From an uncultured Candidatus Saccharibacteria bacterium (GTDB lineage: Bacteria; Patescibacteriota; Doudnabacteria; UBA920), in assembly GCA_964484145.1 (NCBI GenBank), contig CAZAED010000003.1, positions 1-58,516 on the forward strand: a DNA stretch of 58,516 bases, written 5' to 3'. The first letter of the stretch is position 1; each line of letters opens with the position of its first letter. The position numbers were made by a program, and so were the translations under genes. The notes beneath the pieces are model-generated. The model was given only the letters and a program-made list of their open reading frames with translations. It had not been told where the DNA came from and did not search any database. Shown here in pieces: positions 5,688 to 57,992 of this stretch.

Positions 5688-6041
5688 ATGGACAAGAACA
5701 AGCACAAAATAATAAAGCGAAATGTAAGGCATAGCAGAGTTCGCGCAAAAATTTCCGGTACTGAAAAGCGCCCTCGTTTAAGCGTATACAGAAGTTTGGC
5801 AGGTATTTACGCCCAGTTAATAGACGACTCAAACGGAAAAACTTTGGCTTTTGCATCAGCGAAAGAAATTAAGTCAAAGGCAAAAAAGACCGACATTTCC
5901 AAAGAAGTTGGAAAATTATTGGCACAAAAAGCAGTCGCAAAAAAAATATCTGAATGTGTATTCGATAGAGGCGGCTTTGCCTATCATGGCAGAGTAAAAG
6001 CTTTGGCAGAAGGCGCCAGAGAAGGCGGGCTTAAATTTTAA
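5688..6041 (+). CDS. rplR: 50S ribosomal protein L18
   Basis: [17 protein letters not shown] and [23 protein letters not shown] motifs. Confidence 0.96.
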
Positions 6042-9747: not shown

Positions 9748-10113
9748 ATGTTAAACGAAGAATTTGAAAATTTAATAAGTGAGGCGGTGGCGGCTTTGCC
9801 CCAGAATATTCGTGAAAAGCTAAATAATGTTTCTATTACTATGGAAGAAGGGGATTCGCCGAACAATAGTTTGTTTGGTTTGTATCATGGTGTGTCGCAA
9901 ATAAAGCGCGGGTCAAGTTATGGGATGGGCGCAACGCTACCTGACAAAATTACTATTTATAAAGGCACAATAGAAAAATTTGCCGGTGATCCTTTAAACA
10001 TACCAAATATGGTTCGCCGAGTGGTTTGGCATGAAATAGGCCACCATTTTGGTTTTGACGAAGCTGGGGTTAGGCGTCTTGAAGAAAAATGGGCAAAAGA
10101 AGGGAAGATATAA
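9748..10113 (+). CDS. zincin-like metallopeptidase (small HExxH protein)
   Basis: 121 aa with HEIGHHFG near the C-terminus. Resembles the DUF1025/zincin_1 type. Confidence 0.7.
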   Translation: MLNEEFENLISEAVAALPQNIREKLNNVSITMEEGDSPNNSLFGLYHGVSQIKRGSSYGMGATLPDKITIYKGTIEKFAGDPLNIPNMVRRVVWHEIGHHFGFDEAGVRRLEEKWAKEGKI

Positions 10114-41918: not shown

Positions 41919-42296
41919 ATGACACTAAAAAGCTTTTTTTTTATAACACTTTTGTCCTTTGTAGGACTTTTTGCTCTAAAATATTTTTACTTTCAGGGTA
42001 GTTTTGGTCAAGGGGAAACAGGGTACTATATTTATTTTGGATTGGTATTTTTTTTAAGTCTGGTGCTTGCCAGGCGCATAGGTGTTATAACATTTTTGGA
42101 AGCCGCGTTCGTGGCTTTTTTTTGGTTCGTGGTGTTTTTGTTTTTAGACCTGTTAATTACATCGGCATTTTTAGGGACTGTCATATTTAAGTCTTGGGAG
42201 TTTTGGATAGGGCATTTAGTTGCTTCCGGGGTTGTATTTTTATTCCATAAAAAGCGCTACATTGAAACCCGTAAAAAAATGCACGCCCACCACTAA
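41919..42296 (+). CDS. hypothetical membrane protein
   Basis: Four TM helices. Confidence 0.65.
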   Translation: MTLKSFFFITLLSFVGLFALKYFYFQGSFGQGETGYYIYFGLVFFLSLVLARRIGVITFLEAAFVAFFWFVVFLFLDLLITSAFLGTVIFKSWEFWIGHLVASGVVFLFHKKRYIETRKKMHAHH

Positions 42297-42327: not shown

Positions 42328-42355
42328 TTGACATTCTGACTAAAGGTGGTAAACT
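42328..42355 (+). promoter_or_regulatory. sigma70-like promoter with extended -10
   Basis: TTGACA-16 nt (ending in TGG)-TAAACT. Confidence 0.5.
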
Positions 42356-42363
42356 AGCTATAA

Positions 42364-42604
42364 TAAAATATTATAAAGCACTAAACATTCGGCCTCGCAC
42401 GCCGAAACGCTGGCAGGGGAATATCTTGCACGGTCAGCCTACGCCGTAGAAATAGGTAAAAAGAGTTCGCTATTGTTGTCTGATCGCCTATTAATCGGCA
42501 CGCTACAACATAAGTGAAAATCGAGGTGGTACCGCGGAAGCGATAATATATCGTAAACCCGACCTTGAAAACAATTTTTTGTTTTTGGGGACGGGTTTTT
42601 GTTT
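42364..42604 (+). promoter_or_regulatory. T-box-like transcription-attenuation leader
   Basis: GAGGTGGTACCGCGG at 42523-42537 matches the T-box core GGGTGGNACCGCG. The flanks UCGAGG and CCUUGA can close an antiterminator around a UGGUACC bulge. CCUUGA is also part of the 5' strand of the terminator at 42555-42598. Confidence 0.5.
42555..42604 (+). terminator. intrinsic terminator of the leader
   Basis: AAACCCGACCTTGAAAACA...TGTTTTTGGGGACGGGTTT followed by TTGTTT. Confidence 0.7.
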
Positions 42605-42634
42605 GGAAAATCTATAATTAGGGAGAAGGGATAA

Positions 42635-42901
42635 ATGTGGCATCATCATAAGGAGCCGCTGAGGGTGGGACTCTTTGGGTATGATTGGAGAGATAGAATT
42701 GTTCAGGAATTGGCAAGAGTTAGGGGGCATCAGGTTATTTGGATTGCCCATATCCACCAGGCAGGGATTGTTTTGGACTTTTTATTGGACGACCCGCCGG
42801 ACATCCTAGTTGTCCACCCTTTAGCGCGTGTTAATTTCCCTCTGCTATTGTCCCCCCAGGCGGTAGTAGTAATCGGCCCGTCTCGGGCCAAAACAAGGTG
42901 A
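42635..42901 (+). CDS. orphan 88-aa protein in high-GC island 1
   Basis: Strong RBS GGGAGAAGGG at 42621-42630, four nt before the ATG. An intrinsic terminator lies directly downstream. Composition is R/P/W/H-rich, unlike the neighbouring genes. Confidence 0.55.
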   Translation: MWHHHKEPLRVGLFGYDWRDRIVQELARVRGHQVIWIAHIHQAGIVLDFLLDDPPDILVVHPLARVNFPLLLSPQAVVVIGPSRAKTR

Positions 42902-42909
42902 CGCAAAGG

Positions 42910-42955
42910 GCGCCGTGAAGGGTTATTATGTACCCGCGCGGCGCTTGTTTTTGTT
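42910..42955 (+). terminator. intrinsic terminator after island-1 ORF
   Basis: GCGCCG...CGGCGC stem followed by TTGTTTTTGTT. Confidence 0.75.
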
Positions 42956-42982
42956 GACATAAGGTGAACTATCGTTTACTAT
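42954..42982 (+). promoter_or_regulatory. sigma70-like promoter for dinB
   Basis: TTGACA-17 nt-TACTAT. Confidence 0.5.
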
Positions 42983-43098
42983 AATATTATGAAACGAACT
43001 GGATCCTGGATATTTTTGCGGCCTTAGATGATCCTAAGCGTAAAAAATTCCGGGATAACAAAGGTGAGTTAATTGTTAATCGTAAATTGTTAATTGTT

Positions 43099-44487
43099 AT
43101 GACCCCAGTTATTATTCATTTAGATATGAACAGCTATTTTGCTTCGGTTGAGCAGCAGGACAACAAAGAATACCGAGGCAAGGTTTTGGGCGTGTGTGAG
43201 CATTTGGGCGGGATTATAATAGCCGCCAGCATAGAAGCCAAGCGTTGGGGTATAAAAACCGGTACGCCGGTTTGGGAAGCTAAAAAGCTGTATCCTAAAA
43301 TTATCCTCGTTCATACCCGCGCGGATGCTTACAGGGAGTATCACCGCAGGTTTTTAAAAGTAATGCGGGATTACAGTAATTTTGTAGAGCCGGCAAGTAT
43401 AGACGAGGCGTATGCGGACATAACAAGGGTGTGCAATATAAGATGTAAGAATGAAGATGTAAGATATGGGGACTGCTCAGAAATCTTACATCCTAAATCT
43501 TATATCTTAAATTCATTCGTTAATCCTTTTGAAGAAGCTGTAAAGGTGGCTTTGGAAATTAAGCAAAGGATGAAAAAAGAAGTGGGGGATTATTTAACTT
43601 GCTCTATAGGCATTGCGGAGAACAAACTCCTGGCAAAAATTGCGAGTGACTTAAAAAAGCCAGATGGAGTTGTAGTAGTGACGGGTGACGAGTTACGAGT
43701 TACGAGTGGGGAAGCCGAACATTTTACTATTAGTGATCTTTATAACAAGCTTAAACTAACCGACATACCGGGTATAGCTAAGCGTCAGGAAAAAAGGCTA
43801 AACGCGCTTGGAATAAAAACTTTAAAGGAGCTGCGCGATTACCCTTTAAGCAAGCTAGTGCGCGTTTTTGGCATTAACGGTTACCATTTGCACCATATGG
43901 GACAACTTAGCGGCAGCTGGAAAGCCAAAGTTAATTTTGACGAATCTATTAAATCAATCGGCCATATGTATACGCTACCTAAGGAATACAGAAAACCGGA
44001 ATTTTTTGAGCCGGTTTTGTACAAACTTTGCGAAATGGTGGGGGAGAGGCTTAGAAGGAAAAAGTTAATGGGAAATATTGTGGTGGCTTACGTGCGAGAC
44101 GGTAATTATAATTCTTATGGACATTCTGTAAAGTTATCTAACGACATTTTTGACGCAAGGGATTTGTTTTGGGAAAGTAGATATATAATAAAGAATTATC
44201 CGGATATAAATAAAATTATTGCCAATTGTAAACTTATTGGCGTAACAGTAGCAGGACTAAAGCCTTTTGTTTTGCAGCAGTCTTTGTTTAAAAAACAAAC
44301 CGCCCAGGCCTCGCTTACCCGCGCGGTAGATGTAATAAACGCCAAATATGGCAAATTTACCCTCTCCTACGCTCCTGTGTTAAAGGCAGGTAAAGTATTC
44401 CGCGATTCAGTTGGGTTTGGTAGGGTTAAAGAAGTTGGTAATGATGCCGATATTTCCATAAGGCCTGGGAAGAGTTTTAAAAGATAG
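43099..44487 (+). CDS. dinB: DNA polymerase IV (Y-family)
   Basis: IIHLDMNSYFASVEQ, SIDEAYADIT, SIGIA-NKLLAKIASD-KKPDG and the ending of the family are present. About 100 aa longer than usual because of repeat-word insertions. Confidence 0.9.
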   Translation: MTPVIIHLDMNSYFASVEQQDNKEYRGKVLGVCEHLGGIIIAASIEAKRWGIKTGTPVWEAKKLYPKIILVHTRADAYREYHRRFLKVMRDYSNFVEPASIDEAYADITRVCNIRCKNEDVRYGDCSEILHPKSYILNSFVNPFEEAVKVALEIKQRMKKEVGDYLTCSIGIAENKLLAKIASDLKKPDGVVVVTGDELRVTSGEAEHFTISDLYNKLKLTDIPGIAKRQEKRLNALGIKTLKELRDYPLSKLVRVFGINGYHLHHMGQLSGSWKAKVNFDESIKSIGHMYTLPKEYRKPEFFEPVLYKLCEMVGERLRRKKLMGNIVVAYVRDGNYNSYGHSVKLSNDIFDARDLFWESRYIIKNYPDINKIIANCKLIGVTVAGLKPFVLQQSLFKKQTAQASLTRAVDVINAKYGKFTLSYAPVLKAGKVFRDSVGFGRVKEVGNDADISIRPGKSFKR

Positions 44488-45031: not shown

Positions 45032-45298
45032 ATGCCAGACCAAGCGGAATACAAAAAAATGCTTACGGACTTAATTCAAAAGCAAATGGTGGTTTTAGGT
45101 CCCAATATTGCACTCGACAAAGCCAGGAAAGTTCCGGGTGTTAAAATAGCCGACGACGGTACGGTTTTAGACATGGACGGTAATCCGCCCATGGTACTTA
45201 AAGGCGTGGCTAACGAGTATATGGCACTGTCCGGACAAATCGCGCAAATGACATTAAACAGTCTTTTGGAAAAGTATCCTTCAATAAAAGCGCTCTAA
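45032..45298 (+). CDS. hypothetical small protein
   Basis: 88-aa ORF downstream of an extended -10 element and a structured leader. Confidence 0.6.
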   Translation: MPDQAEYKKMLTDLIQKQMVVLGPNIALDKARKVPGVKIADDGTVLDMDGNPPMVLKGVANEYMALSGQIAQMTLNSLLEKYPSIKAL

Positions 45299-45339: not shown

Positions 45340-47013
45340 ATGATCATAAATATTTTACTTGTCGTTGATTTTATTATTCTTGCCATTGTTGTAACATGGT
45401 ATGTTTTTCGTTCGCTAAAAGAGCGCGATGTTTTAAGAAAACGCTTAAGCCAGAGCTTGCAGCTGCAGCAAAAAGTCTACCAAGCGCAGGTTTTAAAAGA
45501 AATTAGCGAACGTATTGGTTATAGTTTAGACACAAACAAGGTGGTAGAAATTATTACCAACTCTTTAGGTAATTTGCTGGAATACGACACGGTTTCGTAT
45601 ATGGTTTTGTCGGAAGACCATAAGGTAGTTTTTAAATGCCATGTGGAAAATACGGTTAACCATGAATTTACTTCGGAAGTTAAAGAAAAAATGCTAGCAG
45701 CTTTTTCCGCTATTTTAAACGAAGAAATAAAACCTCAAAAAATTGACGAAAGCATAACGGGAAATATTTTAGACGACAATATAAATGTTGTGGTTAAATC
45801 GTATTTTAATTTACCTGTGGTTATTGGTGAAAAATTAATTGGGCTTATAAACGTAGCTTCTTCGGAAGCAGGTCGCTATGGCGACGAGCAGGCTTCTATT
45901 TTATATACCATAACTAACCAAGCGGCTACTGCTGTAACTAAACTGCAGGCGGTTTTACATTCGGAAAAAGGCAAGCTTGAGGCTGTTATAGACTCTATTG
46001 CAGACGGAATTATTAACGTGGATTTAAACCATCAACTTTTAATTGCTAATCCGGCGGTTAAAGAAATTTTAGAAATAAACAACTTAAAGCCCGGAGAGGC
46101 TCTTACTATGTTCGACATAGTAGACGCACTTGCAGGTAAAACCGACCTTAGGACTAAAATTGACCAGGCTTTAAGCGAAGACAAAGCAATTTTTGTGCCT
46201 GACGTTGTTTTAAAAAACAAAGCTTTAGAAATTACCATTACTCCAGTTAAAACAGAAAAAAATGAAAAAATTGGCACTAACGTAGTTTTTCATGACATTA
46301 CTACTGAAAAATCTTTAGAAAAACTTCGTCAGGAATTTACTGCTATGATGGTGCACGAACTACGCGCGCCTCTAACCGCGGTTCGCTGGTCAAGCGAGTC
46401 AATGATAAAAACCTTAGCCGCTGCACAAGGCACGGACCCAGGCAAGCTTAAGGACACCTTTTTAACTATAGAAACAGCGTCGAACAATATGCTCGAGTTA
46501 GTTAACGACTTGCTAGATGTAGCAAAAATAGAAGCCGGTAAATTTGAGCTAAACATTCAAGACTACGATTTAGTAGAAACTTTAAAGCAGCAAGTTGAGG
46601 CATTTAAACCCCAGGCCGAAGCTAAGCATTTAACAATTAAATTTACTTCCCCGGAAAAGTTTAAATGTAAGTTTGACCGAGTGCGCGTGGCTCAGGTTTT
46701 GGGTAATTTAATAAGCAATGCTATAAAATATAGTGACGCAGGTGAAATTTCGGTAAATATTAACCCGGAAACAAATGCTAAGCGAGTTGTAATTGGCGTA
46801 AAAGACAACGGTATAGGAATATCGCCGGAAGATTTGCCTGTACTGTTTTCTAAGTTTAAGCAGCTTAAAAGCGGCGACAGAAGCCGTAAAGGAACTGGCC
46901 TTGGTTTGGTGGTGACTAAAGGTATAGTCGAATCTCATGGCGGTCAGGTTTGGGTAGAGAGCCAGGGGGAAAATTTAGGTTCAACATTCTACTTTTCTTT
47001 GCCGACGGAGTAA
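45340..47013 (+). CDS. sensor histidine kinase (TM-GAF-PAS-HisKA-HATPase)
   Basis: H-box MVHELRAPLT, N-box LISNAIKY, G-boxes DNGIGI and GTGLGL. Confidence 0.92.
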   Translation: MIINILLVVDFIILAIVVTWYVFRSLKERDVLRKRLSQSLQLQQKVYQAQVLKEISERIGYSLDTNKVVEIITNSLGNLLEYDTVSYMVLSEDHKVVFKCHVENTVNHEFTSEVKEKMLAAFSAILNEEIKPQKIDESITGNILDDNINVVVKSYFNLPVVIGEKLIGLINVASSEAGRYGDEQASILYTITNQAATAVTKLQAVLHSEKGKLEAVIDSIADGIINVDLNHQLLIANPAVKEILEINNLKPGEALTMFDIVDALAGKTDLRTKIDQALSEDKAIFVPDVVLKNKALEITITPVKTEKNEKIGTNVVFHDITTEKSLEKLRQEFTAMMVHELRAPLTAVRWSSESMIKTLAAAQGTDPGKLKDTFLTIETASNNMLELVNDLLDVAKIEAGKFELNIQDYDLVETLKQQVEAFKPQAEAKHLTIKFTSPEKFKCKFDRVRVAQVLGNLISNAIKYSDAGEISVNINPETNAKRVVIGVKDNGIGISPEDLPVLFSKFKQLKSGDRSRKGTGLGLVVTKGIVESHGGQVWVESQGENLGSTFYFSLPTE

Positions 47014-47263: not shown

Positions 47264-47647
47264 ATGGTAAAAATACTTGTTGCTGAGGACGATAAACTTA
47301 TTTCCGCGTCTTTATGCGATGCCTTAAAGCAAAATGGTTATGAAGCCACTCCTGCCTACGACGGCGAGGAAGCTGTTGCAAAGGCAAAGGAGCTTAAGCC
47401 CGATTTGCTACTTTTAGACATAATGATGCCAAAACTAGATGGCATTTCGGTTTTATGGGAATTAAAAAGCAATGAAGAAACAAAAAAAGTTGCGGTGGTG
47501 GTTTTAACTAATATGGGTGATATGGAAACTATTAGTAAAATTTTAGAAGCTGGTGCTACTGACTATTTACTTAAGAGCGACCAGTCCATAGACGAAGTTA
47601 TGAAAAAGGTAAGAGATGTGTTAAGTAGGGACGTAAAGCTAAGCTAA
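47264..47647 (+). CDS. single-domain response regulator (CheY-like receiver)
   Basis: ILVAEDD, LLLLDIMMP and LTN-G motifs plus the conserved K context. No output domain. Confidence 0.92.
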   Translation: MVKILVAEDDKLISASLCDALKQNGYEATPAYDGEEAVAKAKELKPDLLLLDIMMPKLDGISVLWELKSNEETKKVAVVVLTNMGDMETISKILEAGATDYLLKSDQSIDEVMKKVRDVLSRDVKLS

Positions 47648-48885: not shown

Positions 48886-49431
48886 ATGGACACTTTAGCC
48901 CACGGACTTTGGAGTAATATTATTGTTTATAAAAAGTACCCACAGAACAGCAAAATGCGCTGGGTGGCAGTGGCTTTTGGTATGCTGCCTGACTTAATTC
49001 CTTTCGCTCCTTTGTTTATTTATACTTTTTTAACCGGCAGGTTTGGCGGGCCTGAAAACTGGAACTTTAACCACTGGTCTTTAAACTGGGCGCCTTTTGC
49101 CTACAACTATACTCATTCGCTGGTAATTTTTGCTTTTACAGCTTTTTGTGTAGCACTGTATAGGAAAATCAAATACAAAGCCCAAGGTTTTAATTTGTTT
49201 TACTTTCCGATGCTTGCGTGGGGCTTTCATATTTTGCTAGACATGCCAACTCACCCGAATTTTTACAATACCCCGTTTTTGTTCCCAATTTCAGACTACA
49301 AATTAAGTTGGGGTCTTAGTTGGGGGCATTGGGCAATTTTAATTCCGCAATATGTCTTTTTTGCGGTTTGGTACAGCTGGTGGTTCCTACAGAAACGTAA
49401 AAAATCGACAAATCCTATGAGTAATAGTTAG
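48886..49431 (+). CDS. hypothetical membrane protein (possibly YdjM/DUF457-like)
   Basis: MDTLAHGLW start, His-containing TM segments. The family guess is weak. Confidence 0.6.
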   Translation: MDTLAHGLWSNIIVYKKYPQNSKMRWVAVAFGMLPDLIPFAPLFIYTFLTGRFGGPENWNFNHWSLNWAPFAYNYTHSLVIFAFTAFCVALYRKIKYKAQGFNLFYFPMLAWGFHILLDMPTHPNFYNTPFLFPISDYKLSWGLSWGHWAILIPQYVFFAVWYSWWFLQKRKKSTNPMSNS

Positions 49432-49990: not shown

Positions 49991-50050
49991 TAAACACTAA
50001 TATTTTAAAGGCTCAATCGAATGAGTCTTTAAAAATTCTCAAATTATGCC

Positions 50051-50079
50051 TTGAAAGAAGGCTTTTTTTAATGTAGAAT
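50051..50079 (+). promoter_or_regulatory. sigma70-like promoter in front of high-GC island 2
   Basis: TTGAAA-17 nt-TAGAAT. Confidence 0.6.
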
Positions 50080-50106
50080 TACAATCACATTCCAGGGAGG
50101 AAGATT

Positions 50107-50163
50107 ATGAAAATGGATCTAAATCCCGGAAAATTTAGTGTAAAGGACGTGCTATGGATGTAA
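50107..50163 (+). CDS. candidate 18-codon upstream ORF (MKMDLNPGKFSVKDVLWM)
   Basis: GGGAGGA at 50095-50101 sits five nt upstream of this ATG. Its stop overlaps the start of the 290-aa ORF (ATGGATGTAA). Confidence 0.35.
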   Translation: MKMDLNPGKFSVKDVLWM

Positions 50164-51026
50164 ACCAAAGACATTCTGTTGCCGTGTATGGCGCCGTACA
50201 GGCAACTTTCTCCGAGGAGACTGTGGAATTGCTGAGGAGTGGAGTGGCGTTTGTCGGAGCATCTCATGAAATCAGGTCGGGGTTTAATCTCCCGCCAACT
50301 GCCAGGGTCGTGGTGTATTGTAGTAAAGAGCTTGGACAACCCCGAGTCAACTTGCTCAAAAATGCCGCGGCCAAAATGCCCAATGTGCAATTGGTGGAAG
50401 CGTTCCACCAATCTGATATGGAGACGAAGCTTCAGGGGGTGTTGAGTCCCGTTTTAACACCGCCACTCAGACCTGATGGTGGATTGCAGGCAGATGCTCC
50501 TAGCGTACCAACAACATCACTCCCTTCACCAACACCGCCGCCGCCTTCTAACGGCAAACCGGAGCTCAAGCTCCCACCGCACGGACTGAGATGGAGTTTG
50601 ACTGAGTTCGTGTTCAATAATCTTGACAGGGACTTTCGTTCTGTTGGTGGCGAGGTCGAGCGTCTGTTTGGCCTTGCGAAACAGAACGGTTACCCTGAAG
50701 CTACTGAAAGCGGAGTCGGACAAGCTTTTCGCAAATTCCGCCAGGCAAATGGGTTGTCACAGCCCCGTCCCCGGCGCGGCAAGCTGGCTCAAGCACCGGT
50801 CTTGGTAGATTTGGGATACGTCGAAGTACCGGCGGTTGCTGAATTTTTACAGGACATTCAGAAGATGGGCCAAGGTCTCGCCGTTTTTGTGTCAGCGCTC
50901 GAAAAGGAGCGCGCGGGGAACAAGCGGACCATCGAGGAACTCGAGAGACGGATTAAGATACTTGAGGGAAAACTCGAGAATGCCAAGCAGGCCGCCGATC
51001 TGCTGGCAGCACTTCGGGGGCAATAG
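50154..51026 (+). CDS. orphan 290-aa protein in high-GC island 2 (alpha/beta N-domain, Pro-rich linker, C-terminal coiled coil)
   Basis: This is the only ORF spanning the island. A TTGAAA-17-TAGAAT promoter lies upstream and a strong terminator downstream. The nested alternative-frame ORFs are typical GC-rich shadows. Confidence 0.65.
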   Translation: MDVNQRHSVAVYGAVQATFSEETVELLRSGVAFVGASHEIRSGFNLPPTARVVVYCSKELGQPRVNLLKNAAAKMPNVQLVEAFHQSDMETKLQGVLSPVLTPPLRPDGGLQADAPSVPTTSLPSPTPPPPSNGKPELKLPPHGLRWSLTEFVFNNLDRDFRSVGGEVERLFGLAKQNGYPEATESGVGQAFRKFRQANGLSQPRPRRGKLAQAPVLVDLGYVEVPAVAEFLQDIQKMGQGLAVFVSALEKERAGNKRTIEELERRIKILEGKLENAKQAADLLAALRGQ

Positions 51027-51052
51027 AAGTTGCTTCAGATCCACAAACAACC

Positions 51053-51094
51053 GAAACGAGCGTGCTATATGGAGGAATAGCACGCCGTTTTTAT
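51053..51094 (+). terminator. intrinsic terminator after island-2 ORF
   Basis: AACG-A-GCGTGCTA...TAGCACGC-CGTTTTTATTT. Confidence 0.85.
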
Positions 51095-51211
51095 TTGGAA
51101 ATGTTAAAAAATTTCGTTAAAACAAATAAATATGTTGTAATTAATTGTTTGCTATTTAACCCCAGATATTCTTTTAGGTTTTTTTATTTTGTCTGTGGAT
51201 AGAATATTCAG

Positions 51212-51237
51212 ATATTGGATATTGGATATTGGATATT
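51212..51237. repeat. (ATATTGG)3.7 tandem repeat, reverse complement of the (ATATCCA)4 repeat inside rnhA
   Basis: Exact 7-nt periodicity. Confidence 0.9.
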
Positions 51238-51281
51238 AAGAAAGACCAATAAAATGGCTATTTTTTTGTTTGTAAATAGTT

Positions 51282-51310
51282 TTGACCGGTGTTAAAAGGT
51301 GGGGTATAAT
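51282..51310 (+). promoter_or_regulatory. sigma70-like promoter of the dcw cluster
   Basis: TTGACC-17 nt-TATAAT. Confidence 0.65.
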
Positions 51311-51316
51311 TGTTTT

Positions 51317-51521
51317 AGATGTTTAAAAGTGGTATTTGGTGGGAAAAAGTGGGGAATATGGTGGAAAACCCCCAGTACCAGTCGCTACGACATAAATGTC
51401 GGCTCCGGTACGGGGCGCTACGCGAACTAAAACATCTTAAATTTGTAGTCATTTTTGGCTTCCAGCCCTGGCTTTTTAAGAAAACCGGGGCTGGTCTCTC
51501 CTTTAAAAAGACACGGTTAAT
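51317..51521 (+). promoter_or_regulatory. ~200-nt GC-rich structured leader of mraZ
   Basis: A G-tract region at 51338-51368, hairpin 51370-51415 (CCCC-A-GTACC.../GGTACGGGG with inner CGACA-TAAA-TGTCG), and a 10-bp hairpin 51462-51494 (CCAGCCCTGG / CCGGGGCTGG). Confidence 0.6.
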
Positions 51522-51953
51522 ATGTTTATAGGTGAATACCAAGCAAGTATAGACGAAAAAGGCAGAATTTCAGTTCCCGCCAAATTTAGAACAGAACTTA
51601 AAAAGAAAGTGGTGGTTACAAGAGGCTTAGACAATTCTTTATTCCTTTATTCAATGGACGAATGGAAGAAGCTTGCCGAGAAATTATCTGGACTACCTAT
51701 AGCGAAAGCCAACACCAGAGCATTTAGCCGTTTAATGCTTGCCGGAGCTATGGACTGCGAAATAGACAAACAGGGCAGAATTATTTTACCAAACTACTTA
51801 AAAGAATTTGCGAAAATAGGCAAGAAGGCAATTATAGCAGGACTCTATAACCGTATAGAAATTTGGAGTGAAGAGTTGTGGACAGCGTACAAACAGCAGA
51901 CAGAAGCTGCGAGTAACCAAATAGCAGAACAGTTGGGAAGTTTAGGAGTGTAG
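51522..51953 (+). CDS. mraZ: transcriptional regulator MraZ
   Basis: MFIGEY---D-KGR-S-PAKFR and a second DKQGRI-LP repeat. Confidence 0.93.
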   Translation: MFIGEYQASIDEKGRISVPAKFRTELKKKVVVTRGLDNSLFLYSMDEWKKLAEKLSGLPIAKANTRAFSRLMLAGAMDCEIDKQGRIILPNYLKEFAKIGKKAIIAGLYNRIEIWSEELWTAYKQQTEAASNQIAEQLGSLGV

Positions 51954-55555: not shown

Positions 55556-56545
55556 GTGCCTCAAAAAATATTTAAACAACACGTTGAATTACATTCCCAT
55601 TTGGGTTCAGCCGTACATCCTTCCATACTGTGGGCAATTTCCCATAGGCAAGGTATAAAACTTCCTACTAAAAGCTATTGGGAGTTTGAAGATATGATAA
55701 CTATGACGGGGGAAGAAAAAAATAAAAATCTTGACCAAATGGACAAGAATTTTTTTCATTGGACAGAGCTTATTCAGTCTTCGCCGGAAGCTATAGAAGA
55801 GTCGGTTAAAGGCACTATTGCCGGCGGGTTTAGAAAAAGTAATATTGTACTACACGAACTTAGGTTTAACCCTATGAAACGTAACCGCGGGGGCGAGAGG
55901 GATTTAGACCATATTATTTTTTCCGGACTTTGGGGCGCGCAAAAAGCAACTTTGGAATACCCTCAGGTGAAAGCGGGAATAATTTTAATGATGGGCAGAA
56001 GTTTAAGCTTTAGTCAGAACGAAATTATTACTAGCAAAGCTATAAAATATAAGCACGAAGGCATAATTGGTCTAGATATTGCAGACCCTGAAAGAAAAAC
56101 TTTTTCTATGAAAAAGCATAAGGTCTTGTTTGAAAGAGCCAGAGAAGCGGGTCTTGGTGTTACAATACATACCGGCGAAGCAGGTTCGCTCGATGAGCTT
56201 AAATATGTAGTAAGGGAAATAAAGCCAAACCGAATAGGGCATGGTATTTTGTGCGTAAAGGACAAAAAGCTTATGGAAGATATTGTCGCAAATAATATTA
56301 CTTTGGAAATTTGTCCTACTTCGAATCTTCGTAATAGCGTAGTTAAAAATGTTACTGAACTAAAAAATATTATTCACACTTTGTTAAAGCATAGCGTAAA
56401 GTTTACTATAAATACCGACGGTCCTGAAATGTACAAAAGCAATATTGTTCACGAAGAAGAATTTTTGTTAAAAAATGGTATACTTACCCAAACTCAGCTA
56501 GACCAATGCACCAAATGGGCATTTGAAGCCAGCTTTATAAAATAA
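55556..56545 (+). CDS. add: adenosine deaminase-family amidohydrolase
   Basis: ELHSHLGS, HTGE, GHG and TINTD motifs; GTG start. Confidence 0.82.
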   Translation: MPQKIFKQHVELHSHLGSAVHPSILWAISHRQGIKLPTKSYWEFEDMITMTGEEKNKNLDQMDKNFFHWTELIQSSPEAIEESVKGTIAGGFRKSNIVLHELRFNPMKRNRGGERDLDHIIFSGLWGAQKATLEYPQVKAGIILMMGRSLSFSQNEIITSKAIKYKHEGIIGLDIADPERKTFSMKKHKVLFERAREAGLGVTIHTGEAGSLDELKYVVREIKPNRIGHGILCVKDKKLMEDIVANNITLEICPTSNLRNSVVKNVTELKNIIHTLLKHSVKFTINTDGPEMYKSNIVHEEEFLLKNGILTQTQLDQCTKWAFEASFIK

Positions 56546-56609
56546 AACCTTATGCTCTACTGTACTAGTACGCTAAAGCAAAAGGGTTAGGCGAAAATGA
56601 AATGAATTG

Positions 56610-56640
56610 AGCGCGGCAACCAAGGTTGGTTGCCGCGCTC
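56610..56640. terminator. bidirectional hairpin terminator between convergent add and the island-3 ORF
   Basis: GAGCGCGGCAACCAA-G-GTTGGTTGCCGCGCTC is a nearly perfect 15-bp stem. T-rich runs follow it on both strands. Confidence 0.85.
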
Positions 56641-56649
56641 TTTGATGCG

Positions 56650-57075
56650 TTACTTGGGCCGGGGCATTTCCATATACCCCAGTTTTTTCCACTCTGGTGG
56701 GAGTGGGTTGCTTACGAAGCGGAATCCGCCATTGCTTTTTGTGCTGTGCTCGACCAGCCAAATCACGGCGGGGAGATCCCTATCTCTATTGGTCGGTTCG
56801 TCGTGACGTGGTTTTTCCCCTATGGGAAACTGGTTCCGATGGAACACATGCCACCGCTTAGTTCCCCACCCTTTTTGAGGCCTGAATTCTTTGCCGACTG
56901 GCACAGCCCAACAGCGTTGTTGGGATTCGTCCGTGCAAGCGATCAGGAGAATTTTGTCCCCACGATCTTCCGCCGAGGTTACAAAACCCTCGGTAAGCCC
57001 CGAAGTGTTTTTCGGTTGCTCGGTTTGGGCGAACAGTCCGCCCAGAAAAAAACAAAAAGACGCGATCAGTTTCAT
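56650..57075 (-). CDS. orphan secreted 141-aa protein in high-GC island 3
   Basis: GAGGAGG RBS at 57087-57081, five nt from the ATG. Signal-peptide-like N-terminus MKLIASFCFFLGGLFAQ. A perfect hairpin terminator follows the stop. Confidence 0.6.
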   Translation of the reverse strand: MKLIASFCFFLGGLFAQTEQPKNTSGLTEGFVTSAEDRGDKILLIACTDESQQRCWAVPVGKEFRPQKGWGTKRWHVFHRNQFPIGEKPRHDEPTNRDRDLPAVIWLVEHSTKSNGGFRFVSNPLPPEWKKLGYMEMPRPK

Positions 57076-57116
57076 AGCGTCCTCCTCGCAAGGAGTTTAA
57101 CAGTTATAAAGGTATT

Positions 57117-57992
57117 TTACAAGGGTTTTTTGTTTGGTTTGGTAATTATTATTATGCCAAAAAATAGAGGGATAATTGCTAGTAGTTGCCACGGAGTAGG
57201 GGACTGGCGTAAAAATAAGTAGGCAAAAAATATTGTAAACAAAGGGCCAATGCAGGTTATGGCGTTAGCTTTAACTACCGGAATGCGGTGAATAGATTCC
57301 AGCCATAAAACTTTAGAAAGGCCAAAGAGCAAAATGCCGTTTATGGCTAATAGCCACCAACTACTGGCTATTTGAGGTAATGTAAAGCCTTGGTTTAACA
57401 AAAAAGCCGAAAGTAGTATGACCGGAAAGCTTATAGCAGTCCGCAGAAAAATTATGGTGTAACTGCTCGCGGTTTTGCGTGCTCTTTGCTGAAAAATATT
57501 GCCAATGGGGGAAAGTGCGGTTGAAGCTAAAAGCAGTAAATCGCCTTTGTTAACGTGCGAGCTTTTTGGTAAAAGTAAAATTAGCGCGCCTATTAACATA
57601 AGTATGGCGCCAAAAATATGTTTGCTGTCTAAATATTCTTTTTTCCAAACATTAAATACCAAATAGCTAAAGAATATTTCCATTTGAAGTATTACAGCCG
57701 CGTTGCCTGCAGTGGTGTATTTAAGTCCTATAAACTGTATAAAGTAAGAAAGTATGGAAATAAAAAAAGCGCCCCAAAATACGTCTATTAAAGTGCGCTT
57801 AACAAAAATTTGCGACCAAAGTTTTTTGTAAGTTAATATACCGGCAAAAAATACAGAAGCGGTTAAATAGCTTAAGGCTAAAGACGCCAGCGGTTTTAAA
57901 TTGGTAAATGACAGAATGGTTATAACAGGAAAAAGACTCCAAAGTATAGCCTCGGAAAGTATGTAAATTTCGCCTTTGCGGGATTCGGTCAT
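57117..57992 (-). CDS. EamA/DMT-family transporter
   Basis: Ten TM helices in two repeated halves, ~290 aa. Confidence 0.8.
   Translation of the reverse strand: MTESRKGEIYILSEAILWSLFPVITILSFTNLKPLASLALSYLTASVFFAGILTYKKLWSQIFVKRTLIDVFWGAFFISILSYFIQFIGLKYTTAGNAAVILQMEIFFSYLVFNVWKKEYLDSKHIFGAILMLIGALILLLPKSSHVNKGDLLLLASTALSPIGNIFQQRARKTASSYTIIFLRTAISFPVILLSAFLLNQGFTLPQIASSWWLLAINGILLFGLSKVLWLESIHRIPVVKANAITCIGPLFTIFFAYLFLRQSPTPWQLLAIIPLFFGIIIITKPNKKPL

Follow-up and report, generated by a model that had tools for sequence, protein, structure and literature searches.

Organisation of the locus

The stretch of DNA analysed here (58,516 nt, hereafter the window) holds, immediately upstream of dinB, a discrete unit of atypical composition which comprises its own promoter, a structured leader, a small ORF with a strong Shine-Dalgarno (SD) sequence and a terminator. 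A single cassette of this kind had been proposed in the original prediction, and as a description of a unit it holds. The features of the region are as follows.

42328–42355, + strand: cassette promoter (−35 TTGACA at 42328–33, 16-nt spacer, extended −10 TGgTAAACT at 42347–55)
42372–42606, + strand: putative T-box riboswitch leader with decoding module, discriminator and intrinsic terminator (from Rfam, covariation and fold)
42388–42406, + strand: ultrashort Stem I, a 6-bp hairpin (UUCGGC/GCCGAA) with a 7-nt apical loop, CUCGCAC, at 42394–42400 (from covariation)
42413–42429, + strand: Stem II, a minimal 5-bp hairpin (GCAGG/CUUGC) with the purine-rich loop GGAAUAU (from covariation)
42430–42457, + strand: Stem IIA/B pseudoknot (IIA ACGG 42430–33 with CCGU 42444–47; IIB GCCUA 42437–41 with UAGGU 42453–57)
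42461–42520, + strand: Stem III (stem 42466–42518 from the MFE fold; flanks AAGAG 42461–65 and AA 42519–20)
42521–42567, + strand: T-box sequence and antiterminator, helix A1 (CGAGG 42522–26 with CCUUG 42563–67)
42527–33, + strand: antiterminator bulge UGGUACC
42535–37 and 42559–61, + strand: antiterminator helix A2 (CGG with CCG)
42555–42606, + strand: intrinsic terminator competing with the antiterminator (19-bp interrupted stem, 42555–74 with 42579–98, then UUUUUGUUU)
42621–42630, + strand: SD-like GGGAGAAGGG, 4 nt upstream of the ATG
42635–42901, + strand: ORF88 gene, ATG start, encoding an 88-aa protein
42910–42955, + strand: cassette terminator (GCGCCG 42910–15 with CGGCGC 39–44, inner GGGU/ACCC pair, then UUGUUUUUGUU)
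42954–42982, + strand: dinB promoter, outside the cassette (TTGACA-17-TACTAT, from a promoter scan)
42964–79, + strand: palindromic operator GTGAAC-TATC-GTTTAC in the dinB promoter, a conserved box

The cassette promoter agrees with the consensus at 10 of 12 positions and has the upstream TG, and a TTGACA...GTGGTAAACT layout is also present in L002 and L005 (L-numbers denote related loci, W is the locus in this window and L001 an independent assembly of W). From these matches we infer promoter function, with transcription starting near 42362. The SD sequence is left free by the upstream terminator and is unpaired with the discriminator in a fold of 42520–42670, and purine-rich SDs occupy the equivalent site in L002, L005, L009 and L016. 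That this ribosome-binding site is unlike those of native genes, as had been suggested, is borne out by a crude census in which 55 of 67 ORFs lacked an SD core of at least 4 nt within 22 nt of the start. The ORF itself has exactly the sequence previously given, and the terminator predicted to follow it is real: its hairpin folds at −27.3 kcal/mol (RNAfold), a U-tract follows, and matching hairpins lie downstream of the ORF in L002, L009, L005 and L016. Part of this U-tract also belongs to the −35 element of the dinB promoter, the operator box of which is conserved ahead of dinB in ten related loci. The operator resembles the Gram-positive LexA box (GAAC-N4-GTTC), and dinB is presumably under SOS-box control.

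Composition and integrity of the region

The GC content of 42390–42960 is 48.5% (46.9% in the leader and 50.6% in ORF88), with a peak of 54.5% for any 200-nt window in the region, against 35.5% and 39.8% in the flanks and 38.5% in the entire window. The reported jump in GC is real, but its size (50–58% against flanks in the mid-30s) was overstated. About 25 further 200-nt stretches of the window, mreB among them, also reach at least 46%, and the presence of a T-box leader in the region accounts for part of the rise. ORF88 is nonetheless a true gene-level outlier, with a GC3 of 0.528 that places it in the top three of 67 crude ORFs (mean 0.355, sd 0.059). The tetranucleotide deviation is moderate (z about 2), as compared with 5–5.8 for the second island, and it is this island 2 which is the real compositional outlier of the window.

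A compositional step of this sort might reflect an assembly chimera in which DNA from a higher-GC organism was joined into the contig, and the step is the only support for such an event. An independent 1621-nt assembly (L001; Logan SRR14092371) spans 42342–43962 at 99.94% identity, and the gene order across both junctions is the same in independent MAGs and JGI contigs from a related species, and in at least four independent assemblies of a sister species. The elements also interlock with their neighbours, the overlap of the terminator U-tract with the dinB −35 being an example. These comparisons make a chimeric join at the cassette unlikely, and as an explanation of the locus we give it next to no weight.

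A divergent T-box leader

The leader had been recognised as part of the unit, but its identity was missed. T-boxes are the textbook case of tRNA-sensing RNAs, and on the evidence of covariation and folding the segment 42372–42606 is a divergent, miniaturised T-box riboswitch with mutually exclusive antiterminator and terminator helices. The Rfam T-box family (RF00230) was the sole sensible match to the W leader, aligned end to end at 16.5 bits, and the L009 leader, also aligned end to end, scored 55.4 bits (E 1e-11); there were no matches at gathering level (threshold 93 bits) in the window, L002, L009, L016 or L005. The alignments skip 84–87 Stem I positions of the model, where ~17–23 nt stand instead.

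Covariation was assessed in an alignment of the four orthologous leaders (W, L002, L009 and L016). The share of paired cells is 96.7% for the antiterminator fold and 95.1% for the terminator fold, compared with 29–55% in controls in which the partners were slid by 1–3 columns. Pairs changed on both sides number four and eight in the respective states, and the observed covariation score was reached by none of 500 shuffles; these statistics are thin because the leaders found number just four. The MFE z-score of the leader is −3.98 and the terminator is part of the MFE structure. Among lineages the decoding module is 69–83% identical, with compensatory substitutions. A metagenome scan with the Stem II/IIA pattern returned five matches, four of which were chance occurrences on high-GC contigs and one a true new member (L016), and a covariance model of the decoding module run over 195 kb found no copies besides its four training sequences. 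Within the window, there is no second motif like the GGUGGUACCGCGG at 42524–36.

Every cell of Stem I is paired, with compensatory changes from C-G to U-A. Stem I is not extended and bears no distal platform (AG bulge, distal loop) for docking the tRNA elbow, the distance from the predicted transcription start to Stem II being only ~40 nt. At the base of Stem I the helix AGC/GCU is present, though the K-turn (GA motif) is not: all four leaders carry AA in place of GA on the 5′ strand, and on the 3′ strand L009 and L016 have GA but W and L002 read AC. All cells of Stem II are likewise paired, with A-U replaced by G-C at one pair and a one-sided change at another. Rfam places its loop (GAA...UA) at S-turn consensus positions; with just 5 bp and a GGARWAU loop, an S-turn is not recognisable. 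Pairing in the pseudoknot is 93.8% for IIA and 94.4% for IIB, and IIB has two pairs changed on both sides, its variants being GCCUA/UAGGU, UCCUU/AAGGA and GCCCUU/AAGGGU.

Stem III is the most variable element. In W it is enlarged by some 38 nt that are specific to the window, in L002 and L009 it is formed by paired but non-homologous sequences, and in L016 there is none. The published flank motif 5′-RRRxG ... AA-3′ (PMC7583486) fits both W (AAGAG-[42466–42518]-AA) and L002 (AAGAG-UCCUAA..UUAGGA-AA), with a partial match in L009, while L016 keeps the purines without the stem. Stem III has been reported as indispensable (PMC7583486), and its loss from L016 therefore counts against the T-box explanation.

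The discriminator is better conserved. In W, GAGGUGGUACCGCG at 42523–36 agrees at 12 of 14 positions with the T-box consensus AGGGUGGNACCGCG, a 14-nt sequence with a UGGN bulge (PMC11297988), and the corresponding AAGGUGGUACCGCG of L002, L009 and L016 agrees at 13 of 14. Pairing of helices A1 and A2 is complete (100%) throughout the four leaders, although conservation does not extend to the basal G-U pair of A2. Their 3′ strand (42559–67) doubles as the 5′ strand of the terminator, which is 94.6% paired, has four pairs changed on both sides among the four lineages, and was also found by a terminator scan and in the fold of 42520–42670.

Specifier and tRNA identity

The Stem I loop reads YUCGCAM in all four lineages, in which the only invariant triplets are UCG, CGC and GCA. 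Specifier codons usually have C as the third base and are followed by a purine (PMC7583486, PMC7778990). The specifier is most likely CGC (Arg) at 42396–98, followed by the conserved purine A42399, because this is the sole invariant triplet that satisfies both rules. The candidate sits in a terminal rather than an internal loop; in the short-Stem-I T-boxes of ileS genes the codon occupies nt 16–18, with the purine A19 next to it and the apical-loop C14 adjoining (PMC7583486, PMC10651847). The T-box bulge UGGU would in addition require a tRNA with discriminator A. A tRNA search found no tRNA genes in the window or in 13 related loci, and there are no aminoacyl-tRNA synthetase (aaRS) genes in the window.

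ORF88 is a protein-coding gene

The description of the ORF as an orphan needs amending, since orthologues under purifying selection are found at the same chromosomal position in two other lineages, one represented by L002/L017 (P0004; 60% identity) and the other by L005/L021 (P0005; 52%). Across the three lineages (W, L002 and L005), pS is 0.74–0.85 (saturated) as against a pN of 0.26–0.34, dN is 0.31–0.44, the frame is intact, and both SD and stop are conserved. By these measures ORF88 is a real gene under purifying selection. One might instead dismiss the ORF as spurious and take 42600–42960 for a structured non-coding RNA, or simply for a 3′ continuation of the leader, given that high GC in low-GC genomes often marks structured RNA and that protein homologues do not extend beyond a tiny clade. 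This is very improbable in view of the coding constraint, and the segment shows no folding advantage over shuffled sequence (z −0.93) and has no Rfam match.

Searches with the protein (word-indexed, 5.8 billion proteins; HMMER, 1.84 billion representatives) recovered only ORF88 itself, the two orthologue clusters and two artefacts, the latter (P0002 and P0003) being caused by low-complexity repeats; there was no homologue outside the clade in collections of 5.8 billion or 1.8 billion proteins. Nor were there significant family matches in Pfam, NCBIfam, PHROGs, PADLOC or PDB sequences, the defence and phage libraries (PADLOC and PHROGs) giving no matches. A resemblance by eye to the N-terminal part of the 290-aa island-2 protein (ORF290) had led to the suggestion of a small shared family, which found no statistical support and was rejected: BLASTP produced no alignment at E≤100, the ORF88-family profile scored ORF290 no better than it scored 300 shuffles, and the N-terminal domain of ORF290 had no homologues at all, and hence no profile of it could be built. 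Weak NCBIfam matches to DinB (E 0.03) raised the possibility that ORF88, or the ORF in L009, derives from a duplicated and since decayed N-terminal part of dinB; we rejected this, as pairwise BLASTP was not significant.

AF2 models of ORF88 have a pLDDT of 60 from the single sequence and 63 with a 3-sequence MSA. They predict a small alpha/beta protein with the topology beta1-alpha1-beta2-alpha2-beta3-(alpha3)-beta4, the fold of which is only weakly Rossmann/receiver-like. Foldseek searches of the PDB gave nothing at E≤0.001, and the top matches were receiver domains (Spo0A, NarL, DesR) aligned with the first ~56 residues (TM 0.5, rmsd 1.6–2.1), a likeness that is not significant (E 0.03–0.3, model pLDDT 63). 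As in CheY-like receiver or Rossmann-like half-domains, acidic residues (D17 and D20) follow beta1. Residues conserved in the ORF88 protein are H3, H5, H39, H61, D17, D20 and D56. In contrast, the phospho-acceptor Asp site of receiver domains, at the end of beta3, is His61 in ORF88, which at only 88 aa lacks alpha4-beta5-alpha5, and there was no Pfam match to Response_reg (PF00072) at E≤1.

Distribution and residence of the cassette

The order mreB-m169-m125-cassette-dinB is common to W, L002/L017/L018, L009 and L016, and the cassette is always flanked by a membrane-protein gene and dinB. Relatives differ in what the slot contains, which may be the full cassette, a version without the T-box, a T-box followed by unrelated ORFs, or nothing. 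ORF88 is kept without a T-box in L005, showing that the pairing of RNA and cargo is loose, and only a residual hairpin is left in L006. Nothing occupies the m125-dinB slot in L004 and L008, whereas other genes fill it in L003 and L007. Wherever the T-box is present, the promoter, SD and both terminators are intact. We considered whether the ORFs following the T-box in L009 and L016 are divergent homologues of ORF88 and obtained no support for this, BLASTP having found nothing and HMM support being absent (the L009 ORF scored 4.8 bits against the ORF88 family HMM, inside the shuffle range, for which the maximum was 5.4). By eye, the L009 ORF and ORF88 both have GLFG[YF], V[IV]W and PxxIVxxP at similar spacing.

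Recent horizontal import of a T-box and small ORF from a higher-GC, SD-using donor, with island 2 inserted independently, would fit the GC3 of ORF88, its strong SD in a window where most ORFs have none, the empty or differently occupied slots of some relatives, and the strong compositional deviation of island 2. T-boxes are moreover typical of Firmicutes and Actinobacteria, and a literature search found no papers on T-boxes in CPR, Patescibacteria, Saccharibacteria or Parcubacteria. Against such an import, lineages whose DinB proteins are only 52% identical share one insertion site, leaders are more alike between closer relatives, the L002 orthologue of ORF88 is native-like (GC 41.6%, GC3 0.39), and L005 and L006 provide a decay series. 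The borders contain no repeats, integrase or other mobility genes, ORF88 has no homologue outside the clade in the protein collections searched, and no relation of the cassette to island 2 was detected. Taken together, the shared slot, the relatedness of the leaders, the decay intermediates and the native-like GC3 in L002 indicate old residence with decay and not recent arrival. They point to a cassette that is old in the clade and eroding in several lineages, and disfavour the independently inserted foreign cassette of the original prediction; we regard recent import as rather unlikely.

Erosion might have gone further. The T-box could be a decaying relic that has lost its former gene (for example, one for an aaRS) and is now followed by fortuitous or young ORFs without a regulatory role. 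In favour of a relic, the ORFs downstream of the T-box are of three kinds, unrelated to one another, depending on the lineage; the T-box is gone from L005, Stem III from L016 and everything from many relatives; the K-turn and S-turn motifs are degenerate; and Stem III has expanded in W. Such a history is improbable, however, because the decoding module has kept its identity, with compensatory substitutions, across deep lineages, and because both alternative helices are 95–100% paired, which is unexpected for neutral sequence in AT-rich genomes. Purifying selection on ORF88 is clear, and the intact signals that accompany every T-box also argue against decay.

Proposed mechanism

The reading that we favour, and consider likely, is that of an old CPR transcription unit composed of a sigma-70-type promoter, a miniaturised T-box, an 88-aa gene and a terminator, which probably serves a response to arginine starvation. 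The analysis establishes the RNA architecture, the covariation, the constraint on the coding sequence and the synteny, whereas the direction of regulation, the role of ORF88 and the identity of the tRNA are inferred. In such a model, the nascent leader would fold into a decoding module of ~85 nt consisting of the 6-bp Stem I, minimal Stem II and the Stem IIA/B pseudoknot, and the 7-nt, anticodon-loop-like loop of Stem I would display the codon, most likely CGC (arginine), for pairing with the anticodon of the cognate tRNA. If that tRNA is uncharged, its 3′-ACCA end would pair with the UGGU of the T-box bulge and stabilise the A1/A2 antiterminator, with further backing from Stem III and its purine flanks. 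RNA polymerase would then pass the terminator at 42555–42606, and ORF88 would be translated from its strong SD. With charged tRNA the terminator would form and transcription would end upstream of ORF88. The product would be a small cytoplasmic alpha/beta protein confined to a few related lineages, and the logic of the control suggests that it acts in a response to starvation for an amino acid, probably arginine.

Significance and comparison with known T-boxes

It is conceivable, and we suggest it only tentatively, that the leader is the first recognised member of a class of mini T-boxes native to CPR/Patescibacteria, acting through a terminator without elbow platform, K-turn or S-turn and coupled via arginine to small effectors. 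If so, the anticodon would be read by a mimic of the anticodon stem-loop, in which a 7-nt loop (Y-U-NNN-R-N) engages in a loop-loop kiss, and the charging of tRNA(Arg) would be coupled to fast-evolving small effector proteins in place of genes for amino-acid metabolism. For metabolically dependent cells this would be a minimal starvation-response module, placed beside an SOS-controlled error-prone polymerase. In the current view, terminator T-boxes need a long Stem I for quick capture of tRNA, and forms with a short Stem I occur only in actinobacteria, where control is translational and slower. According to reviews, a long, elbow-binding Stem I is in general a requirement of terminator-type T-boxes, which counts against the minimal form as a transcriptional switch. 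A terminator T-box with a module of ~85 nt would put the long-Stem-I rule to the test, define a smaller functional core and help the engineering of tRNA sensors. The known range of T-boxes would then take in the CPR radiation as well; because they escape Rfam thresholds there, riboswitch censuses of CPR genomes may undercount. The clade-specific cargo, together with the unrelated small ORFs found elsewhere, suggests that T-box control can be attached outside amino-acid metabolism. Even if the T-box were merely a decaying relic, the compositional island would be explained and its reading as a foreign cassette corrected.

With canonical transcriptional T-boxes (RF00230; for example Bacillus tyrS and glyQS) the W leader shares the T-box sequence and UGGNACC bulge, the competition of A1/A2 with a terminator followed by a U-tract, the Stem IIA/B pseudoknot, a Stem III flanked by RRRxG...AA, a candidate specifier followed by a purine, and its 5′ position. 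It differs in that the canonical Stem I spans ~90 nt and has an elbow-binding platform, whereas that of W is a 19-nt hairpin without one, and in that the candidate specifier lies in an apical 7-nt loop and not in an internal loop. Neither a K-turn nor an S-turn is clearly present, the scores (16.5–55 bits) fall below the 93-bit threshold, and the host is a CPR bacterium. Canonical cargoes are aaRS, biosynthesis and transport genes, whereas the cargo here is a clade-restricted 88-aa protein with no amino-acid-related assignment, a difference that we count against the T-box explanation.

Parallels in decoding architecture exist with the translational (class II) T-boxes of actinobacterial ileS genes (Mycobacterium, Nocardia), compared here by their descriptions in PMC10651847 and PMC7583486; an 'ultrashort' Stem I in ileS T-boxes is attributed to Sherwood 2015, as cited in PMC7583486. 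Like these, W has a truncated Stem I without elbow platform and an apical (candidate) specifier, and a compact decoding module of ~85–100 nt (Stem I, II and IIA/B) is common to both. The ileS T-boxes sequester the SD, have a long Stem II with S-turn, a K-turn and an AUC (Ile) specifier, and control ileS, whereas in W the SD is left free by a bona fide intrinsic terminator, Stem II has only 5 bp, the loop is of CGC type and the cargo is an orphan. In place of an SD sequestrator, W has the 19-bp hairpin and UUUUUGUUU, which end ~15 nt before the SD. What lies upstream of ORF88 thus appears, from its predicted structure, to be an ultrashort-Stem-I T-box that acts via a terminator, in a CPR bacterium and with a non-canonical cargo.

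The leader of island 1 is a T-box riboswitch

The GC-rich cassette of island 1 lies between m125, encoding a 125-aa membrane protein (41919-42296), and dinB (43087-44487; IMS and IMS_C domains), and its leader is a T-box riboswitch. The T-box motif GAGGUGGUACCGCGG (consensus AGGGUGGNACCGCG; PMC11297988) occurs once in the window, at 42523-37, and the surrounding elements are as follows:

42328-33 and 42350-55: promoter, TTGACA, 16-nt spacer, TAAACT with upstream TG
42377-79 / 42409-11: base helix, AGC / GCU
42388-93 / 42401-06: Stem I, UUCGGC / GCCGAA, loop CUCGCAC
42413-17 / 42425-29: Stem II, GCAGG / CUUGC, loop GGAAUAU
42430-33 / 42444-47: Stem IIA, ACGG / CCGU
42437-41 / 42453-57: Stem IIB, GCCUA / UAGGU, makes a pseudoknot
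42466-42518: Stem III, flanked by AAGAG and AA
42522-26 / 42563-67: antiterminator helix A1, CGAGG / CCUUG
42527-33: T-box bulge, UGGUACC
42535-37 / 42559-61: antiterminator helix A2, CGG / CCG
42555-74 / 42579-98: leader terminator, then UUUUUGUUU
42621-30: Shine-Dalgarno (SD) sequence of ORF88, GGGAGAAGGG
42635-42901: ORF88, 88 aa
42910-55: terminator of the cassette, GC-rich hairpin with U-tract

The flanks of Stem III fit the RRRxG...AA motif described for this element (PMC7583486). The 3′ strands of A1 and A2 are used again in the leader terminator, which forms part of the MFE fold of the leader (z -3.98), and the SD lies 3′ of this terminator, unsequestered; the expression platform is therefore transcriptional.

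Rfam returned no match in this leader at gathering thresholds. A permissive scan aligned the T-box model over its full length to 42372-42569 with a score of only 16.5 bits, with Stem I collapsed and a large insertion inside Stem III, and the orthologous leader of locus L009, which is without that insertion, scored 55.4 bits (E 1e-11); the 93-bit cut-off was passed by none of the orthologous leaders. The additional ~38 nt of Stem III, relative to L009 and the sister-species locus L002, are specific to the window. The T-box of L016 is without any Stem III, although the T-boxes studied so far reportedly cannot do without this stem. L002 (5236-5269) and L017 (2790-2823) carry between promoter and T-box a perfect 34-nt palindrome, ATTCCGCCAAAGGCGGATCCGCCTTTGGCGGAAT, which is absent from the window and may be either a small mobile hairpin or an extra regulatory stem.

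Comparative support for the switch

Scanning a genome collection with DinB and one metagenome with a Stem II/IIA pattern yielded three more leaders, all upstream of dinB: L002 (also L017-L020), L009 and L016. In the resulting four-sequence alignment, 96.7% of cells are paired in the antiterminator-state structure (4 pairs changed on both sides) and 95.1% in the terminator-state structure (8 pairs). The observed covariation score was reached by none of 500 shuffles, and pairing was only 29-55% in controls with partners slid by 1-3 columns. Compensatory changes are present in each of Stem I, Stem II, IIB and the terminator, and in L002 and L009 the place of Stem III is taken by unrelated sequence that still pairs. 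Four sequences make for thin statistics, but a functional switch would predict just this pattern.

Which tRNA would be sensed

The Stem I apical loop, the sole conserved unpaired stretch of the decoding module, reads CUCGCAC in the window, UUCGCAC in L002 and L009, and UUCGCAA in L016; we observe that its Y-U-NNN-R-N layout is that of an anticodon loop. The only invariant triplets are UCG, CGC and GCA, and of these only CGC ends in the favoured C and is followed by a purine. The bulge UGGU demands discriminator A, disfavouring Ser and His tRNAs, which have G73 and C73, respectively. In short-Stem-I ileS T-boxes the codon is formed by nucleotides 16-18, followed by the purine A19, beside the apical-loop residue C14 (PMC7583486, PMC10651847), and the CGC-A of our leader is in the same register. 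Because of this register, the third-position C with its purine and the discriminator preference, we lean towards a putative tRNA-Arg (ACG/ICG or GCG) as the cognate. There are no tRNA genes in the window or in 13 loci searched.

ORF88 and its product

The 88-aa translation originally predicted is that of ORF88, which is a real gene. Its orthologues share 60% (P0004; L002/L017) and 52% (P0005; L005/L021) identity, pS is saturated (0.74-0.85, Nei-Gojobori) with pN of 0.26-0.34, and dN/dS is ~0.15 where computable; the region folds no better than shuffled sequence. The strong SD is, as had been proposed, atypical, because 55 of the 67 window ORFs have no SD core (at least 4 nt, within 22 nt of the start) in a crude census that reads every long ORF from its first start codon. 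A strong purine-rich SD precedes every ORF of the T-box slot, the interval between m125 and dinB (window, L002, L005, L009 and L016).

No homologue outside three lineages was found among 5.8 billion clustered proteins, an exhaustive HMMER search of 1.84 billion representatives likewise returned none, and there were no significant matches in Pfam, NCBIfam, PHROGs, PADLOC or PDB sequences. An AF2 model from a three-sequence MSA (pLDDT 63) has beta-alpha-beta-alpha-beta-(alpha)-beta topology. Its top PDB matches in Foldseek (E 0.03-0.3) are to response-regulator receivers, over their first half, and to N-termini of Rossmann type; they suggest a three-layer alpha/beta fold but are no evidence of membership. 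Invariant residues include H3, H5, H39, H61, D17, D20 and D56. Island 1 is a T-box-controlled small-protein operon, and by regulatory logic its product would serve a response to amino-acid starvation, probably of arginine.

The postulated family shared by ORF88 and the 290-aa protein of island 2 did not survive: neither BLASTP nor a profile search with shuffled controls supported a similarity. The only homologue of the 290-aa protein is P0007, and the two have no more in common than their C-terminal ~160 aa, a Pro-rich linker plus coiled coil. Nowhere in the window does tetranucleotide composition deviate more strongly than in island 2 (50000-51100; GC 52-54%; z 5-5.8). An 18-codon uORF, MKMDLNPGKFSVKDVLWM (50107-50163; SD GGGAGGAAG), lies ahead of its ORF (50154-51026) and at its end overlaps the main ATG, an arrangement suggestive of translational coupling; a terminator follows at about 51055-51095.

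Origin of the cassette

An independent assembly (L001, Logan SRR14092371) covers 42342-43962 at 99.94%, and both cassette junctions are spanned by sister-species assemblies, so that a chimeric contig is unlikely. The GC jump is genuine but smaller than the 50-58% versus mid-30s first claimed: 42390-42960 has 48.5% and its flanks 35.5% and 39.8% (window, 38.5%). ORF88 has 50.6%, the richest 200-nt window of the island 54.5%, and some 25 other such windows, mreB among them, reach at least 46%. With a GC3 of 0.528 against 0.355 +/- 0.059, ORF88 is one of only three gene-level outliers; tetranucleotide deviation is moderate (z ~2, and 5.8 for island 2).

Uncultured Patescibacteria MAGs that bear the label Saccharibacteria or Doudnabacteria are the nearest relatives of the window, and all relatives keep the order mreB-m169-m125-[slot]-dinB-...-HK557.

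Content of the slot in the window and related loci
Window, L002 lineage: T-box, ORF88, terminator
L009: T-box, unrelated 89-aa ORF
L016: T-box (no Stem III), unrelated 110-aa ORF
L005: promoter, AU-rich hairpin, ORF88; T-box absent
L006: similar hairpin only
L003 (5413-5800), L007 (4545-4930): GNAT acetyltransferase gene (Pfam Acetyltransf_7, E 2e-13)
L004, L008: essentially empty

Given the GNAT genes, the slot is a hotspot for small accessory genes; that of L007 holds an additional ORF of ~270 aa. The original prediction of a foreign cassette, with its own terminator, holds as regards a discrete, variable cassette, but is not supported as regards recent foreign origin: leader similarity tracks relatedness (0.76 for the window and L002, 0.77 for L009 and L016, 0.66-0.72 across the pairs), the L002 orthologue of ORF88 has a native-like GC3 of 0.39, and the borders of the cassette have neither mobility genes nor terminal repeats. 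A horizontal origin in the deep past is conceivable, but the simplest history is that of an old resident with repeated erosion and cargo turnover.

Other features of the window

A palindrome, GTGAAC-N4-GTTTAC (42964-42979), overlaps the -10 of the dinB promoter and is conserved in ten related loci (just upstream of dinB in L002-L009 and L016), with a GTATAC half in most. Its resemblance to GAAC-N4-GTTC, the LexA (Cheo) box of Gram-positive bacteria, makes it the probable SOS box of this CPR clade. Its core recurs at 9861, 31727, 35162/35173 and 55856. A ydjM-like gene lies at 48886-49431; ydjM is SOS-regulated in E. coli. Directly upstream of dinB, L006 has a heptamer tandem repeat, (CTCACTA)n (5945-6000).

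Another 88-aa ORF (45032-45298; no Pfam match) is far better conserved than its neighbours (99% identity with L002, 61-93% in all other relatives). Just downstream of it come a GAF-PAS histidine kinase (45340-47013) and then a stand-alone receiver (47264-47647). Ahead of mraZ (51522-51953) are a short tandem repeat of GGATATT (about 51205-51228) and, at about 51330-51420, a GC-rich stretch that may be structured; Rfam gave no match at gathering threshold in 51200-51430. A third GC-rich patch (56500-57100, about 50.5%) contains overlapping ORFs on opposite strands:

56626-57222, plus: 198-aa ORF, no Pfam match
56650-57075, minus: 141-aa ORF, GC3 0.57

Comparison with known T-boxes

The island 1 T-box is without a distal Stem I platform, a canonical K-turn or a recognisable Stem II S-turn. 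A long Stem I is generally required by transcriptional T-boxes, and a short or 'ultrashort' Stem I is a feature of translational (Actinobacterial) ones (reviews, including PMC11297988). The literature that we searched makes no mention of T-boxes in CPR lineages, an absence that is not proof of novelty. Unlike the Actinobacterial translational T-boxes, island 1 uses an intrinsic terminator despite its minimal Stem I. The RNA belongs to a known class of riboswitches, of which it is an architecturally new form, in a phylum where one was not expected.
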